Counted from the first letter of the stretch, positions 2,543 to 33,186 are shown. The stretch is 34,699 nt of DNA from Patescibacteria group bacterium (GCA_018818235.1 JAHISE010000067.1:1-34699), one strand, 5' to 3'. Translations and numbers: made by a program. Notes: generated from the letters alone by a model not told the origin.

Positions 2543-2746
2543 ATTAAACAAAACCGCCAACCAGCCTTCGCTCGCTGCGGCGAGACTACGGCCGGCGGGA
2601 GATGTAATTAATCCACAAACATAATTTATATGCTGTTATTAAACAAAACCGCCAACCAGCCTTCGCCTATGGGCTACGGCCGGCGGGAGATGTAATTAAT
2701 CCACAAACATAATTTATATGCTGTTATTAAACAAAACCGCCAACCA
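2543..2746. repeat. Tandem repeat, 2 full units (95 and 88 bp) plus a partial third; each unit ends (minus strand) in a hairpin and U-tract
   Basis: ATTAAACAAAACCGCCAACCA starts at 2543, 2638 and 2726; the two full units differ only in the loop of the embedded hairpin element. Confidence 0.9.
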
Positions 2747-6802: not shown

Positions 6803-7498
6803 ATGGATAAACCTTCAAGCTTACATCTCGCAATCATCCCTGACGGAAATAGACGTTGGGCGAAGAATCGCAGCCTCCACCCCTGGAAAGGACACGAACA
6901 AGCAATAGAAAACTTCCGATCTATAACAGAGTGGTGCAGAAACGATCCGCGTGTGAACATTCTGACTGTCTGGTGCTTCTCTACAGAAAACTGGAAGCGT
7001 GATCCAAAGGAAATAGAGATGCTTATGAAGATGTTGGAGGATTATTTAAGAAAGGAGCAGGAAGGTTTTATCGAAAAGAAGACAAAGTCCCTTCATTCCG
7101 GAAGAAAAGATAGGATCCCCTCTTCTCTTGCGCAGTTAATTGAGGAAGTTGAAAAGAAAACTGCTGACCAGTCCGAATTTACTCTGCACTTGGCTGTTGA
7201 TTACGGTGGGAAGGATGAGATCATACGTGCAATCAATAAAATATCCGTAACGGAAGATTGCGATCTTCCGCTGCGATCAGAAAATGGTATTCGTGAGCAT
7301 CTCGACCATCCGGAATTGTCTGATATTGATTTGATCATCCGAACTTCCGGTGAACAAAGAACCAGCAACTTCTTCCTTTGGCAAACTGTTCACTCCGAAT
7401 GGGTTTTTAATAACAAGTTGTTCCCTGATTTTGAAGTTAGTGACCTAGAATCTGCAGTTGATGACTTCGCAAATCGTACACGTCGCTTTGGTTCATGA
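6803..7498 (+). CDS. uppS: Undecaprenyl diphosphate synthase (cis-prenyltransferase)
   Basis: Motifs HLAIIPDGNRRWA, FSTENWKR, IIRTSGEQRTSNF and RRFG. Confidence 0.96.
   Translation: MDKPSSLHLAIIPDGNRRWAKNRSLHPWKGHEQAIENFRSITEWCRNDPRVNILTVWCFSTENWKRDPKEIEMLMKMLEDYLRKEQEGFIEKKTKSLHSGRKDRIPSSLAQLIEEVEKKTADQSEFTLHLAVDYGGKDEIIRAINKISVTEDCDLPLRSENGIREHLDHPELSDIDLIIRTSGEQRTSNFFLWQTVHSEWVFNNKLFPDFEVSDLESAVDDFANRTRRFGS
7246..7275 (+). repeat. Intragenic REP-like palindrome (in uppS)
   Basis: CGTAACGGAAGAT-TGCG-ATCTTCCGCTGCG. Confidence 0.8.
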
Positions 7499-9730: not shown

Positions 9731-10987
9731 ATGGACCTCCGAAGCCTCCCTACATCATTAAACTCTTCCGATCGCTGTAACGAGCGTCGCAAAATCATCG
9801 AACGTGAGCTTGGAGCGGACCTTGGAGCACTGAAGATTGATCCAAATAAGCTCGGCAGTGCCGAAGAGAATAATTGCGAACAAATGTTCGGACATGTTCC
9901 GATTCCTGTAGGCCTGGCAGGCCCACTCAAAATTTATTTCAACGGTCGTAGCGGCGATTCGAAAATCGCCGATGAGAATGCCACAAATATTTTCCTCCCA
10001 CTCGCAACAACAGAAGCTGCACTCGTCGCAAGTGTTAATCGCGGGTGCAAAGCTCTCACTTTATCAGGTGGAGTTACAACCAGATCTATATATCACGGCA
10101 TGACCCGATCTCTCGCATTCCGGATTCCGGATTCCGGATTCCGAAACTTCATAGAAACAATTAACAAACTAAAACCTGAGTGGATGAAAATCGGCGAATC
10201 CACCAGCTCCCACCTCAAAATAATTAATTACTACATTGATGAATGTGATAACCATCTATTTGTAACAATCAACTGTGATACCGACGAGGCAATGGGTATG
10301 AACATGGTAACAATTGCCGCTCAGGCAATCGGAGAATGGATCGAGGCACATATTCCTGAGCTTGAATTTATAACAGTGGCCGGAAATGTGGACTCGGATA
10401 AAAAACCGAGCAAAAGAACTCATGATTTGGGAAGGGGTTACGAAGTTTTTGCTGAGGCTGAACTCTCTGAGGAAGTCATCAAGGACGTACTTCATACTAC
10501 CCCCTACTCACTACTCACTACTGCCCAAGCTAAACTTGAATCAGGCTCTAAAGTTGCAGAATCAATAGGTTCAAATCTTCAAGCTGCAAATATTATCGCT
10601 GCACTCTACCTTGCAACGGGTCAGGATGCTGCGCACGTTGTCGAGGGATCGATGGCGGATACAACAATTACAGACGTAGCGGAAGATCGTTATCTTCCGC
10701 TCCGCATATCGGTCCGTTGCCCCGCCATCCTCGTCGGAGTCCGCGGAGGTGGAACTCAACTACCTGCACAATCTCAATGCCTTCAACTTCTTACAAAACC
10801 AATTAACCAATTAACCAATCAACCAATTAACCTACACTTAGCTGAGATCATTGGAGCCGCCGTCCTAGCAGGAGAAATATCGTTATTGGCTGCTCAAGCA
10901 ACTCATACTTTGGCAAAGTCGCATAAATCACTTGCAAGAAATAGTAAAGAACTGGAAAGACCCCAGTTTTTTAAACCCAAATCCTGA
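9731..10987 (+). CDS. hmgA: HMG-CoA reductase, class I (archaeal/eukaryote type); C-terminus extended by an IS insertion
   Basis: Motifs PLATTEAALVASVNRG, DEAMGMNM, GN.DSDKK, ATGQDAAHV and LAGEISL. Confidence 0.95.
   Translation: MDLRSLPTSLNSSDRCNERRKIIERELGADLGALKIDPNKLGSAEENNCEQMFGHVPIPVGLAGPLKIYFNGRSGDSKIADENATNIFLPLATTEAALVASVNRGCKALTLSGGVTTRSIYHGMTRSLAFRIPDSGFRNFIETINKLKPEWMKIGESTSSHLKIINYYIDECDNHLFVTINCDTDEAMGMNMVTIAAQAIGEWIEAHIPELEFITVAGNVDSDKKPSKRTHDLGRGYEVFAEAELSEEVIKDVLHTTPYSLLTTAQAKLESGSKVAESIGSNLQAANIIAALYLATGQDAAHVVEGSMADTTITDVAEDRYLPLRISVRCPAILVGVRGGGTQLPAQSQCLQLLTKPINQLTNQPINLHLAEIIGAAVLAGEISLLAAQATHTLAKSHKSLARNSKELERPQFFKPKS
9947..9971 (+). repeat. Intragenic REP-like palindrome variant (in HMG-CoA reductase)
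   Basis: CGTAGCGGCGATT-CGAA-AATCGCCG, with compensatory stem changes relative to the other copies. Confidence 0.75.
10675..10704 (+). repeat. Intragenic REP-like palindrome (in HMG-CoA reductase)
   Basis: CGTAGCGGAAGATCGTTATCTTCCGCTCCG, encoding VAEDRYLPL. Confidence 0.88.
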
Positions 10988-12257
10988 GAATAGCTTAAAA
11001 CCATGCGGAAAAGGGGCATAGTGTATTTTGACATAGTCCAAATGTCTACTTAACCCATTTTTCGCTATGCAACAATACCTCCATGATGCTCTTAGAAACA
11101 ACCTTCGTCCTGTAATTAAGTATTGCACCAGGCCTCAGCAAAAAGCTGTAAGCGAGGTTGTTCGTGGTCTATTCACAGAAGCCACACCTGTCTTGAGGCA
11201 TGTTGCGCAAGACAAAACAAAAACAGTTAAAAAGCAGGCTGAAAAATACAGCTATCACTTGGGAAACATTGATGTAACAGATGAAGTTGATGCCCTTGCA
11301 TTGAGGAAAGTTAAATCTCAAGTGCGTAAGCACACAGTGATTGCCTATGATCTTTGTGATATCAACAAAGAGTTTTCAAAAAAGATTGAGAAGATGACAA
11401 ATGTATTTGATGGAAGCAGGAGAAAGATAGCACCGGGATTTTTTCTGCATGGCGTTGGTATCAATGGCATTCTCTTAAAGTTTCAAGTGCACGATAATGA
11501 GGTACACACACTCAGCCAAATTCGATCAAAGATCGTTGGAAACATTTCAAAAGAACTCAAAAACAAGGGTATCTGGGTTTTTGATCGTGGCAATGACAGC
11601 AAGACATGGTACCGTGAACTCTGTCAGGTTCACGAAGCTGATTTTATCGCAAGAGTAAAAGAAAATCGTTATGTTGTCTTAAAAGAAACTGGGGATTATT
11701 TGCTTGTGAAAGATTTGGAACCGGGCATGTATGAAGTCCACTTTATGAATTATCACAACAACAAAGTGCACACAGATATCACCTATACACTCATCATCAA
11801 TGAGCACTTGGAAGACAAAGAGCCCATCAGACTAATCAGCAACCTTGGCATTGATCAATTCACATCAGAAGAGTTTGTAACAATGTATCTGGAACGCTGG
11901 GGTATTGAGAATGTTTTCAAAAGAGCAAAGCAGAAGTTTTGTCTTGAAAAGATCAGAGTTCTGAGTTTTCGGAAGTTCAAGAACCTTGTGTCTCTCATTC
12001 AGCTTGCAACCATTATTGCTACTGTAACATTTGTTGCCATTCAGAAGTCCACACATGCAGTTATCGTTGCTGTTGTGAAACTTTACAAAAACTTCCTGTG
12101 GCATCGTTCACTTGAACAAAATCTCGACTCCTTCATTGCATTCATGCAGGCATCTTTGCCAAGACTTGTACATCGTATCAAACTTCCTTCTGACCAAATG
12201 AGCCTGTTTTCAAGGAAGTGTTTAAACAGAGTGGGGTAAAAACTGGGGTCTTTTCAG
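10952..12257 (+). mobile_element. IS4-family insertion sequence, 1306 bp
   Basis: 20-bp TIRs CTGGAAAGACCCCAGTTTTT / CTGAAAAGACCCCAGTTTTT; direct repeat TAAAGAA at 10945-10951 and 12258-12264. Confidence 0.93.
11067..12239 (+). CDS. DDE transposase (IS4 superfamily)
   Basis: Motifs IAYD and VFDRG, plus the Y-R-E-K signature YLERWGIENVFKRAK. Confidence 0.93.
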   Translation: MQQYLHDALRNNLRPVIKYCTRPQQKAVSEVVRGLFTEATPVLRHVAQDKTKTVKKQAEKYSYHLGNIDVTDEVDALALRKVKSQVRKHTVIAYDLCDINKEFSKKIEKMTNVFDGSRRKIAPGFFLHGVGINGILLKFQVHDNEVHTLSQIRSKIVGNISKELKNKGIWVFDRGNDSKTWYRELCQVHEADFIARVKENRYVVLKETGDYLLVKDLEPGMYEVHFMNYHNNKVHTDITYTLIINEHLEDKEPIRLISNLGIDQFTSEEFVTMYLERWGIENVFKRAKQKFCLEKIRVLSFRKFKNLVSLIQLATIIATVTFVAIQKSTHAVIVAVVKLYKNFLWHRSLEQNLDSFIAFMQASLPRLVHRIKLPSDQMSLFSRKCLNRVG

Positions 12258-12450
12258 TAAAGAATAATTGACTTATGCCCTGTTTTATTGCAAGATACTG
12301 CACTCATATCCTCTTTTGGATATGCGTTCATTCCCATCAAAGGACAACGGATAAATCTCCGGAATCAAAAACCGGAAGATGAAGATATCCCAATCTAGTT
12401 GATCAAGTAACCGTCACCCGTCACACGTTTCGCGAAAGAAGGAAGAACCA

Positions 12451-25820: not shown

Positions 25821-26435
25821 TCAAACCCCAATCACATGCCTCTTCTTTACTTCCTCCTGAATAAACTCGGGGTCACTTCCCAACCTACTACCTTCCGGTT
25901 CAACTTGTCCCATATATTTGCTATTTGGTTTTTTGTTGTAAGGAGTCTGCGCCGGACTTGTCATCTGTTCAAAAGAAATCTGACAAACTCGCATCCCTGA
26001 ATAAAGCGCAACCGGCATTGTATTTAAGTTACTGATTTCGAGTGTGATTGTTCCGCTAAATCCGGGATCAACGAACCCTGCAGTTGAGTGGACAATGATT
26101 CCCAGACGTCCCAATGAACTTCTGCCTTCCACACGTACAACCAAATCATCGGGGACTGTAATTTTTTCCTGAGTAACCCCAAGAAAGAACTCACCGGGTT
26201 GCACTATAAATGGCTCCCCGTCTGCAACTTCTATGGTTCTGATGTTATCGGTTAGAGTTTCTGACTTTCTTGGATCCAGAAGTGAGGCTTTGGAATTATC
26301 GTAAAGCTTAAAGATGTTTCCAAGATGCAAATCCATAGAACTTGCATGGATGTGGTACGAACTCGGATCACAGTTTTCTATTTTTACGTGACCTGAGGTG
26401 ATGGCTCGGCGGATGTCGATGTCGGAGAGGATCAT
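25821..26435 (-). CDS. dcd: dCTP deaminase
   Basis: Motifs MILSD.DI, EGRSSLGRLG, TAGFVDPGFSG.ITLEI and KYMGQ. Confidence 0.96.
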   Translation of the reverse strand: MILSDIDIRRAITSGHVKIENCDPSSYHIHASSMDLHLGNIFKLYDNSKASLLDPRKSETLTDNIRTIEVADGEPFIVQPGEFFLGVTQEKITVPDDLVVRVEGRSSLGRLGIIVHSTAGFVDPGFSGTITLEISNLNTMPVALYSGMRVCQISFEQMTSPAQTPYNKKPNSKYMGQVEPEGSRLGSDPEFIQEEVKKRHVIGV

Positions 26436-26463
26436 GATGTGAGAGTATCATAAATAATATAAA

Positions 26464-26626
26464 AAATCCCAAATCCCAAAACACAAATCACAAAGAAATC
26501 CCAAATCCCAAAACACAAATCACAAAGAAATCCCAAATCCCAAAACACAAATCATAAAGAAATCCCAAATCCCAAAACACAAATCACAAAGAAATCCCAA
26601 ATCCCAAAACACAAATCCCAAATGCC
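26464..26626. repeat. Heptamer tandem arm (AAATCCC/AAAACAC/AAATCAC) in 32-bp higher-order units
   Basis: Unit AAATCCC AAATCCC AAAACAC AAATCAC AAAG, four copies plus a partial fifth. Confidence 0.95.
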
Positions 26627-26628
26627 AT

Positions 26629-26985
26629 TTATTGTGTAAGCTTTAATATTATTGAACTTAGAATTCGTAATAATTGATTTGCCTCATCCTTTAAATAAGT
26701 CTGTTCCTTTTGTAGCTCAGTATTGTTTCCGGCATCTATAAGATCTAACCAATGAATACTTTCTTTAGCTTCTTTTCTTGAAATTCGCATATGCATTATT
26801 CGATCCTTTTTACCCAGTGCCTCATCCGCCTCAATAAAATTTGCTCCAATAGATCCTGAAGAACGAATAAGTTGTTTAGTGTATTCGGTGTTGGAAATTG
26901 AGTATGGGATTTTTTCTGTAAAGAATTTAACTTTGCGTGCAAATTGCCTAGAGCGCTGCTCAAAATCAAATGGTTTATCAGTCAT
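26629..26985 (-). CDS. Four-helix-bundle protein (23S rRNA IVP / Avd-like family)
   Basis: QLIRSSGSIGANFIEA...ISRKEAKES.HWL signature; 118 aa. Confidence 0.93.
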   Translation of the reverse strand: MTDKPFDFEQRSRQFARKVKFFTEKIPYSISNTEYTKQLIRSSGSIGANFIEADEALGKKDRIMHMRISRKEAKESIHWLDLIDAGNNTELQKEQTYLKDEANQLLRILSSIILKLTQ

Positions 26986-27043
26986 AAGGTGAACCAGTAT
27001 ACACCATTATTGTGAATATCAAGTATTTTCTATTAATAACAAT

Positions 27044-27146
27044 CTTGGGATTTGGGATTTGTATTTTGGGATTTCGTTGTGTTTTGGGATTTGTGTTTTG
27101 GGATTTCGTTGTGTTTTGTGATTTGTTTTTTGAGATTTGGGATTTC
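27044..27146. repeat. Inverse heptamer arm (GGGATTT/GTGTTTT)
   Basis: Reverse complement of the 26464 arm, with the same 4x7+4 register. Confidence 0.95.
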
Positions 27147-27256
27147 TTAAATGGGTCCCTGCATTTTGGCATTGATCCGTGATTTGTATTCTTACCTACA
27201 AAAACCTCACCTATTCCATTGCCCTACCCCCAAATTTCCATAAAATACCTGCGTCC

Positions 27257-29767: not shown

Positions 29768-29872
29768 AATGTCGAATGTCGAATGTCGAATGTCGAATGT
29801 CGAATGTCGAATGTCGAATGTCGAATGTCGAATGTCGAATGTCGAATGTCGAATGTCGAATGTCGAATGTCG
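29768..29872. repeat. Perfect heptamer microsatellite (AATGTCG)x15
   Basis: 105 bp, read directly; degenerate inverse arm at about 29695-29740. Confidence 0.97.
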
Positions 29873-29874
29873 AT

Positions 29875-32555: not shown

Positions 32556-33131
32556 ATGCACCCCTCAGAATCAAAACAACAACTCAGGGAATCCATAATC
32601 GAACGCCTTGCCCACATGTCAGAAAAAGATCGCGCAGACGAAAGTAGATCCATATGCAGAAGACTTAAAGAGAATATCCCCGAAGGATCCGGTGTTTGTG
32701 TTTATTCCGCATTAAAAAAGACTGAGCCTGACCTTACAATGCTTATAGAAAAGCTATTAAAGAGAGGAGACAAAGTATATTTTCCATTTTTTGAAGGTGA
32801 CCACTTTATATTCAAACGTGCTATGAATCTAGATGAACTTAAACCGGGCAAATTAAAAATACTTGAGCCTCCGGCAGACTCTGAACTTGCAGATCCGAAG
32901 GAAATCGACTTTGTTCTTGTGCCGGGTCGCGCTTTTGACCGAAATGGAAACCGCTTGGGCAGAGGAAACGGAGGTTATGACTATTGGATAGCAGATCAGA
33001 GGATGGCCAATCCCAAAACTGCAATGTGGGGCGTTGCTTTTGAGTGTCAGATTGTAAATGAAGTGCCGGTGGAAGAGCATGATCGGAGAGTGGACGGGGT
33101 GGTTACTGCTAGAACGTTGTTAAGTTGCTAA
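32556..33131 (+). CDS. 5-formyltetrahydrofolate cyclo-ligase
   Basis: VLVPGRAFDRNGNRLGRGNGGYD and VPVEEHD motifs; preceded by (AGCCAATA)x3. Confidence 0.95.
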   Translation: MHPSESKQQLRESIIERLAHMSEKDRADESRSICRRLKENIPEGSGVCVYSALKKTEPDLTMLIEKLLKRGDKVYFPFFEGDHFIFKRAMNLDELKPGKLKILEPPADSELADPKEIDFVLVPGRAFDRNGNRLGRGNGGYDYWIADQRMANPKTAMWGVAFECQIVNEVPVEEHDRRVDGVVTARTLLSC

Positions 33132-33186
33132 GTTGCTACATTGGACAGCATGCAACATAAACGTAGCAACGTAGCAACGTATCAAC
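33114..33186. repeat. Empty inverted octamer shell (GTTGCTAA / TAGCAACG)
   Basis: Left arm overlaps the upstream stop codon. Confidence 0.85.

Follow-up and report, generated by a model that had tools for sequence, protein, structure and literature searches.

This report concerns a small cassette, a single gene enclosed by two long inverted arrays of heptamers, in a 34,699-nucleotide stretch of DNA from Patescibacteria group bacterium (GCA_018818235.1 JAHISE010000067.1:1-34699). We refer to this whole stretch, at its full length, as 'the window'. The assembly that contains it belongs to Peribacteria, in the candidate phyla radiation (CPR), and comprises 1.58 Mb in 164 contigs, with 41% G+C and 95% completeness; contigs are cited by number (e.g. 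C130). The gene, a minus-strand open reading frame (ORF) at 26629-26985, encodes a four-helix-bundle protein of 118 amino acids, and sits between AAATCCC-type arrays of inverted orientation. In window coordinates, the features are these:

26436-26463, unstranded: degenerate B-type outer end (tentative; by-eye comparison with 16 B ends)
26464-26627, unstranded: 3' arm (relative to the gene), five 32-bp blocks of AAATCCC-type heptamers by Tandem Repeats Finder (TRF); pairs with the 5' arm in the predicted fold
26629-26985, minus strand: four-helix-bundle gene, 118 aa, PF05635/TIGR02436 by profile matches
26986-27044, minus strand: leader with near-palindrome GGTGTATACTGGTTCACC at 26988-27005, immediately upstream of the ATG (from the sequence and paralogue comparison)
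27045-27146, unstranded: 5' arm, about three blocks of 32 bp, inverted with respect to the 3' arm (TRF, RNA fold)
27147-27178, minus strand: A-type outer end GGATC-AATGCCAAAATGCAGGGAC, common to the family's other A ends

TRF reports the array on the gene's 3' side at 26464-26622 (period 32, 5.0 copies, 97% matches, score 304), with the unit AAATCCC AAATCCC AAAACAC AAATCAC AAAG. The array on the 5' side lies at 27051-27138 (period 32, 2.8 copies, 92% matches), and its unit, on the other strand, is AAATCCC AAAATAC AAATCCC AAAACAC AACG. Period-7 rows cover 26464-26627 and 27045-27145. These results confirm an earlier, sequence-only reading of the locus, in which each arm was described as four heptamers plus a 4-nt spacer, 32 bp in all. 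That reading also put the left arm 2 bp from the stop codon; the close approach stands, the exact distance does not, there being a single base (26628) between the end of the period-7 array at 26627 and the stop codon at 26629-26631. The further suggestion that the 32-bp block measures three helical turns finds no backing in conservation, the register being poorly kept: the C130 paralogue is approximately one block shorter, and the family member on C132 has a 35-nt block repeated. The order of heptamers is unlike in the two arms, and each must therefore have grown through a separate, recent duplication of blocks; such duplication, not a conserved measure, accounts for the 32-bp register. The sense-strand RNA of the cassette is predicted to fold with the arms paired, at -210.8 kcal/mol versus -143.1 +/- 5.1 for 20 shuffles (z = -13.3), beyond what chance would give.

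The cassette lies between dcd and a 608-aa gene without a family match, that is, between two divergent gene starts; tRNA-Val, trpS and a DM13 gene are its other neighbours. At the Rfam gathering threshold tRNA-Val is the only match in the window, and the cassette is thus not in 23S rRNA. No transposase, integrase or reverse transcriptase (RT) adjoins it, as the sequence-only reading had stated; the nearest is a DDE transposase at 11067-12239. The near-palindrome of the leader, of the form GGTGTAyAC..GGTtCACC, is confined to copies from Peribacteria, and may be a hairpin at the ribosome-binding site or a promoter element. A simple scan of the leader found no sigma-70-like promoter, although CPR promoters may differ.

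The protein matches PF05635 (E 4.6e-15; 56.2 bits, cut-off 33.8; residues 9-110) and TIGR02436 (E 1e-20; 74 bits, cut-off 24; residues 9-116), and its nearest solved relative is PDB 2RLD (E 8.2e-9). The family to which it belongs, that of the proteins of 23S rRNA intervening sequences (IVSs), related to Avd from diversity-generating retroelements (DGRs), is large and widespread; to our knowledge, it has no known function outside DGRs. The window gene differs from the C130 paralogue by 7 synonymous and 2 non-synonymous changes, a ratio of non-synonymous to synonymous rates (dN/dS) of 0.07, and the five computable paralogue or orthologue pairs range from 0.03 to 0.09. Such low ratios point to strong purifying selection on the protein itself, besides the RNA. 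The window protein has an isoelectric point of 9.2, compared with a median of 8.6 for 118 members of the family.

Arms of this kind are a general companion of the gene. Related loci were located with a five-sequence alignment as the query, and each was given an arm score, for which the upstream flank (250 nt) was compared with the reverse-complemented downstream flank (also 250 nt) and the best local match taken; positions shifted by 650 nt, 229 in all, served as controls. Genes cut by contig ends (L013, L014, L015 and L017) and one locus with too short a flank (L061) were set aside. The sequence-only reading had proposed a survey of the flanks of other family members for inverted arms, and the survey found them: inverted tandem arms of 7-9-mers reach a score of at least 13 at 110 of 119 family loci versus 16 of 229 controls, and of at least 15 at 106 of 119 versus 2 of 229. 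By group, the loci with arms number 12/12 in the window's own genome, 24/28 in other genomes of the class, 16/17 in further Peribacteria, 15/15 among Flavobacterium orthologues and 43/47 in other phyla, which include Chloroflexota, Planctomycetota, Acidobacteriota, Ignavibacteriae, Thermotogae, Bacillota, Spirochaetes, Kiritimatiellia and Cloacimonadota. Periods of 7 (63 loci), 8 (29) and 9 (15) predominate, with a few of 6 (2) and 12 (1). Across phyla, the four-helix-bundle gene is the only gene found between the arms.

The repeat unit itself varies from locus to locus. The assembly has 15 matches to TIGR02436, and each copy for which both flanks are present is bracketed by inverted tandem arrays; their units differ (GGTCACT, CAATCAA, GTCGAAA, GGTTGGGTA, GGAATAxT and others). 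Pairs of cassettes with the same unit rise from 0.2% (3/1214) at protein identities below 30% to 40% (2/5) at identities of at least 80%, and so the arms are inherited with the gene and yet change much faster. Of 96 non-redundant cassettes, 80 have GT in the unit of the upstream arm and 26 have AC; in the GT/AC orientation of gene relative to arms, the window copy is of the minority type. Outside Peribacteria, in other phyla, the 5' arm reaches up to the ribosome-binding site, and there the mRNA must include the arm.

The window copy is the sole intact member of its repeat family in the genome. The family has outer ends of the form GGATC-AATGCCAAA..., about 15 of them A-type and 16 B-type. The A end, GGATC-AATGCCAAAATGCAGGGAC, has 16 matches in the genome versus 1 for a reversed control, and AAATCCC arms lie next to it in 15 of the 16, the exception being on C147; the B end, GGATC-AATGCCAAATGTTGTGGAAAAAATAGTAAACC..., occurs 16 times. 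Both types of end, 15 of A and 16 of B, have a 14-nt terminal inverted repeat, GGATCAATGCCAAA, outside the heptamer arms. Nine elements, of 134-529 bp, are complete from A to B. In the window, the A-end boundary fits the behavior of contigs in public metagenome assemblies: those from three DNA studies and one RNA run track the window sequence to 27178 and diverge exactly there. The B-type end, bordered on one side by the dcd start codon (26433-26435) and on the other by the 3' arm, keeps only the inner part of end B, its terminal AATGCCAAATGTT being unrecognizable. Contigs of two DNA runs (X3 and X5) part from the window sequence at 26459. A joint of 26459 to 27115 on 'opposite strands' was considered as a local inversion and rejected: the contig has 6 differences in 64 nt, and is read as another family copy.

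Pieces of the window gene are scattered among these elements. Its last ~22 codons, at 79-88% identity, are found at ten other loci (C19, C46, C50, C60, C94, C101, C111, C118, C152 and C154), and an inner piece, residues 27-46, is also present at C111, C152, C50 and C60. The remnant copies have the same internal layout, and we therefore take them to stem from a single element with an internal deletion, which then spread. In three copies (C111, C121 and C152) the A end is 5' of the gene, and in seven (C19, C46, C50, C60, C101, C118 and C154) it is 3' of the gene, which implies that the core flips between the inverted arms. A further gene copy, on C130, is cut by the contig end; it is 96% identical over 253 nt and has the leader and arm in common with the window copy, and the homology stops at the arm's outer edge.

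Two side observations concern the same family. One loop sequence of 45 nt, located at C118:22070-22114, is present in AAATCCC-type hairpins at approximately ten other loci too, with 98-100% identity, and marks a second derivative sub-family. And an RNase III gene (C112:6232-6873) adjoins an AAATCCC-armed element with a GC-rich insert at 6948-7346, the pair spanning C112:6232-7346.

The site next to dcd was compared with that of congeners. dcd was located in six of seven, and in all six it is divergent from the homologue of the 608-aa gene. None of the six has the four-helix-bundle gene there. Four hold a complete hairpin without a gene, built from other units: AAGTTCC in two congeners, and a GAATCAGAG-type 9-mer and AAAGAGAT in a single congener each. 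The fifth has only a left array of the 9-mer type with a GC-rich insert, and the sixth has no hairpin. The gene is therefore not fixed at this site, contrary to one outcome that the sequence-only reading had entertained, and the cassette represents either a lineage-specific gain or a replacement. As the junction is one of two gene starts, a hairpin there is no terminator. Three further junctions, occupied here by CGGAATC hairpins, contain different hairpins, GC-rich palindromes or no spacer in congeners; at the one on C124, the two genes are ~5 nt apart in three congeners. Junction contents that vary in this way mark whole hairpins, loops included, as insertions with rapid turnover. The idea that arms formed around native intergenic DNA is ruled out at the C124 junction by the ~5-nt spacing.

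Hairpins without genes are abundant throughout the genome. TRF finds 1705 tandem arrays in the 1.58 Mb, of which 727 have period 7, 343 period 8 and 193 period 9. Adjacent arrays of period 6-10 form 179 inverted same-unit pairs, whose arrays are a median of 41 bp apart, versus 27 direct ones. We defined the set of gene-less hairpins as the 143 inverted pairs with a gap below 150 bp. These fall into 53 unit families, the largest being AAATCCC (18), AATATTCC (14), AATCCGG (10) and ACCAGTG (8). The arm unit matches that of a gene-bearing cassette of the same genome exactly in 42 of the 143, versus a null mean of 7.8, and within one mismatch in 86, versus 33.4; the null was drawn from equal numbers of units taken from cassettes of other Peribacteria genomes. 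The AATCCGG and AACGTAGC families are exemplified by hairpins at C124:4708-4822, C136:10837-10941 and window 33116-33186. The claim that the cassette is the loaded form of shells scattered through the window thus holds on the scale of the genome, given these matches and the remnants at ten loci, and fails for the window itself. There the repeat arrays are mostly solo and of other units, about five having an inverted partner within 260 nt, and so are not empty forms of the AAATCCC cassette.

Gene-less hairpins occur at tandem, convergent and divergent junctions in the numbers 71/22/18, proportional to the baseline of 759/205/210. As intrinsic terminators they were considered and rejected, the junction types being the baseline mix and the window site divergent. 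A source of the loops elsewhere in the genome was also considered: 29 of the 77 loops of at least 30 nt have a second copy, mostly AAATCCC-family cores or GC-rich repeats, and none of the AATCCGG-family loops has a second copy in the genome. Capture was rejected on these counts.

Hairpins and genes also seem to go together across relatives. In a blind sample of 30 relatives (the first 20 kb of contigs 1 and 2), we found 0 inverted pairs in 363 kb from ten gene-less genomes, 5 in 379 kb from ten with 1-4 copies, and 16 in 316 kb from ten with at least seven. Spearman's rho is 0.63, the relatives not being independent. Within the window's own family the figures are 0 inverted pairs in 183 kb versus 19 in 378 kb.

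Enzymes that might move such elements were sought in the assembly with the transposase profiles PF01797, PF01609, PF00665 and PF07282. None of these four yielded a cognate transposase for the cassette in the 95%-complete assembly. The window has one insertion sequence, at 10951-12258, with a DDE_Tnp_1 transposase of 390 aa (ORF 11067-12239, plus strand); its 21-nt terminal inverted repeats, ACTGGAAAGACCCCAGTTTTT, are unrelated to the cassette ends. Two Y1_Tnp genes of the RAYT/IS200-like kind (RAYT: REP-associated tyrosine transposase; REP: repetitive extragenic palindrome), at C90:9898-10116 and C106:5323-5526, are flanked by GC-rich palindromes, not heptamers. They make up a REP/RAYT-type system that is separate from the heptamer hairpins. 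Palindromes of this GC-rich type also occur inside some hairpin loops. The assembly has one match to rve and none of TnpB type. Its sole RT lies at the edge of contig C104, away from any four-helix-bundle family member; its best score is for a group II intron RT/maturase, and is below the curated cut-off. In all, no RT, DDE, Y1 or rve gene was found tied to heptamer arms in the assembly. The gene for RNase III, rnc, is present in the genome.

Taken together, sequence comparisons establish that the arms are part of the element and move along with the gene, that the element was gained at the window site and has duplicated, that internally deleted, gene-less derivatives arose and multiplied, that the core flips between the arms, and that the protein is under strong purifying selection. 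The sequence-only reading spoke of a mobile or diversifying system; the first half is upheld by duplicates, ends and empty sites, the second is not, the only RT being group-II-intron-like and on another contig. We lean, with some confidence, towards regarding the window locus as an intact copy of a selfish, IVS-type cassette with dependants resembling those of miniature inverted-repeat transposable elements (MITEs) and of REPINs (REP-derived hairpin doublets). The protein, probably a pentamer like its solved relatives, would work in trans on its own family's heptamer arrays, and would thereby maintain or propagate full cassettes and gene-less dependants alike, as RAYTs do with REPINs. In transcripts, the arms would pair into a duplex of ~100 bp for the cell's RNase III to cut, as in the 23S rRNA IVSs of Coxiella and Leptospira, and such cutting would let the cassette sit between genes, in operons or in rRNA at low cost to the host. 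A bolder version, which we put forward only tentatively, is a replicator without a transposase: the pentamer might recognize its own heptamer arrays, as DNA or RNA hairpins, and call on the host's enzymes of replication, repair or RNA processing, which would copy or maintain these hairpins.

Several observations weigh against the selfish-cassette account. The nine complete elements have no direct repeat of at least 3 nt outside GGATC, hence no visible target-site duplication; GATC is palindromic, however, and a 4-bp duplication of it is indistinguishable from a terminal repeat. We know of no nucleic-acid binding or catalytic activity in the protein family. Differences between the arms are mostly transversions (338), and the G-U-compatible ones number 112 in the sense and 137 in the antisense direction, without sense bias, which makes the arms look like arrays of one family out of register, not compensated stems. 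A clean B end is missing from the window copy, and the copy may thus no longer be mobile. The one metatranscriptome with part of this stretch among its assembled contigs has none over the body of the gene, a result that is uninformative on expression. No cognate gene-bearing cassette exists in the assembly for 57 of the 143 gene-less hairpins, the AATCCGG family, with 11 members, included. The correlation of genes with hairpins across relatives is confounded by kinship, and is suggestive only. Finally, hairpins of the AATCCGG and AACGTAGC families have near-identical arms from one locus to the next and loops of clustered lengths (57-71 nt and 25-31 nt), but the loop sequences resemble one another no more than random pairs do; unrelated loops within near-identical arms mean that simple whole-element copying fails as an explanation.

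Other explanations have to be set beside this one. It is unlikely, in our estimation, that the arms act at the level of RNA only, giving an RNase III-processed, end-protected or insulated transcript of a protein useful to the host, with the gene-less hairpins being unrelated regulatory hairpins and ordinary recombination and horizontal transfer accounting for the spread. The very stable predicted arm-arm duplex, the presence of rnc, the precedent of IVSs, the strong purifying selection on the protein and the preferred orientation of the gene relative to the arms (GT upstream in 80/96, AC in 26/96) are what such a role would lead one to expect. Yet it leaves unexplained the deleted derivatives of the window gene, with the same arms and ends, at ten other loci, and the units that gene-less hairpins have in common with gene-bearing cassettes of the same genome. 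Mismatches between the arms are uncompensated in the RNA sense, and an RNA stem kept by compensating changes, when considered in its own right, was dismissed because these same counts of differences give no signal of it. The baseline mix of junctions argues against a role at transcript ends. Mobilization by a conventional transposase through the terminal repeats, with the four-helix-bundle gene as cargo or accessory, as in MITE families, strikes us as quite unlikely. The clear 14-nt terminal inverted repeat outside the arms and the many short derivatives are typical enough of such a system, and in an assembly that is 95% complete and in 164 contigs the transposase gene could be missing. No GGATCAATGCCAAA pair spans a transposase-sized segment, however; the DDE and Y1 transposases that are present have other ends, with one rve and no TnpB-type match besides; the close paralogues on C156 and C4 have nothing in common outside their arms; and the only gene found between the arms, across phyla, is this one.

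That the hairpins are instead host intergenic features, into whose loops four-helix-bundle genes insert preferentially, so that the arms are no part of the element, seems very improbable. Congeners do have gene-free hairpins of various units at the dcd site and at the three other junctions, and other small elements, GC-rich repeats and a ~140-bp element, are likewise found in hairpin loops. But arms stay with the gene from one locus to another (C121 and C130) and track protein similarity across genomes; they flank the gene in phyla where a population of empty hairpins was neither sought nor observed, and the sampled DNA of gene-less relatives had no such hairpins. Scarcely any credence, lastly, attaches to a diversifying, DGR-like system in which the Avd-like protein and an RT act on the repeats. 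It draws on the relationship of the family to Avd (PMC10053308) and on the one RT gene in the assembly. This RT is group-II-intron-like, at a contig edge on C104 and away from family members; no template/variable repeat pair adjoins the gene; and arm differences show no adenine-specific pattern.

The selfish-cassette account also has to be placed among known systems. MITEs and transposons with terminal inverted repeats (e.g. Ac/Ds) combine inverted subterminal arrays of short motifs with terminal inverted repeats. The window family resembles them in that full and deleted copies have terminal inverted repeats in common, and in the multiplication of non-autonomous copies; it differs in that no transposase gene or clear target-site duplication was found, and in the two hairpin families with unrelated loops. 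Heptamer tandem repeats, termed STRR (short tandemly repeated repetitive sequences), are familiar from cyanobacteria. Like these, the arrays described here are intergenic, 7-nt and of few copies each, and so are the repeats of Beggiatoaceae (PMC4679880). The TAACTGA repeats of Beggiatoaceae are reported as direct arrays, with one inverted case among ~170 sets, and the cited part of that paper makes no mention of the 23S IVS or of any four-helix bundle (PMC4679880).

The closest likeness is to ORF-bearing 23S rRNA IVSs, of Coxiella burnetii, Leptospira and others, in which an ORF of the S23p/PF05635 family lies in the loop of a long stem of terminal repeats and tandem heptamers are present. In Coxiella, the S23p ORF occupies the loop of a 28-bp terminal stem that RNase III cuts at mid-stem; two to three tandem GACAGAT heptamers, varying in number among strains, lie in the 5' part of the element; and the element is described as selfish, its architecture not being generalized in the part of the account cited (Warrier et al. 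2016, PMC4990558). The window copy, unlike these, is outside rRNA, and has arms of ~100-160 nt instead of 28 bp; its family has, in addition, extra outer ends and a population of gene-less derivatives. REPIN-RAYT systems, as described in the passages cited, are similar in that one small gene has inverted copies of a repeat on its two sides, the repeat being also dispersed intergenically as hairpin doublets, and in that each gene type is paired with its own repeat population (PMC3116915, PMC3337134). They are dissimilar in that the window gene encodes a PF05635 four-helix bundle without a known catalytic motif, not an HUH Y1 transposase, and in that the cassette repeats are tandem 7-9-mers, not 20-40-nt palindromes. 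With Avd of DGRs the protein has in common a homologous four-helix-bundle fold family (PMC10053308), unaccompanied in the cassette by an adjacent RT or template/variable repeats. One survey counts the family among proteins associated with CRISPR arrays (PMC10910872); our guess, going by what is cited from that survey, would be that flanking tandem repeats contribute to the association.

The literature covered, which took in neither subscription journals nor supplementary files, yielded no published description of such a cassette outside rRNA when the family names were combined with heptamers or with tandem or inverted repeats. What the genome adds, beyond a single cassette, is defined ends, multiplied deleted copies, a flipping core, empty orthologous sites and a link between gene and hairpins. 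A fixed nucleic-acid architecture tied to the family leads to the testable hypothesis that the protein acts on its own heptamer arrays. ORF-bearing rRNA IVSs could have originated as one landing place of a general element, and the cassette explains some of this genome's very high load of tandem repeats. If the replicator version were true, populations of gene-less heptamer hairpins would depend on the four-helix-bundle protein, and one type of element would explain ORF-bearing rRNA IVSs, free-standing cassettes in many phyla and much of the heptamer load.

A few other repeats deserve mention. A four-helix-bundle gene is interrupted by the ~140-bp element, the parts lying at two contig ends (the end of C74 and the start of C146); further copies of the element, 96-100% identical, are found within two hairpin loops whose arms have other units (C60:1305-1463 and C87:3236-3390). 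Among the solo arrays of the window is (AATGTCG)x15, at 29768-29873, with 100% identity and no inverted partner within 260 nt. An 88-bp direct repeat at window 2586-2746 has 1.8 copies, 100% identical, with GC-rich ends.

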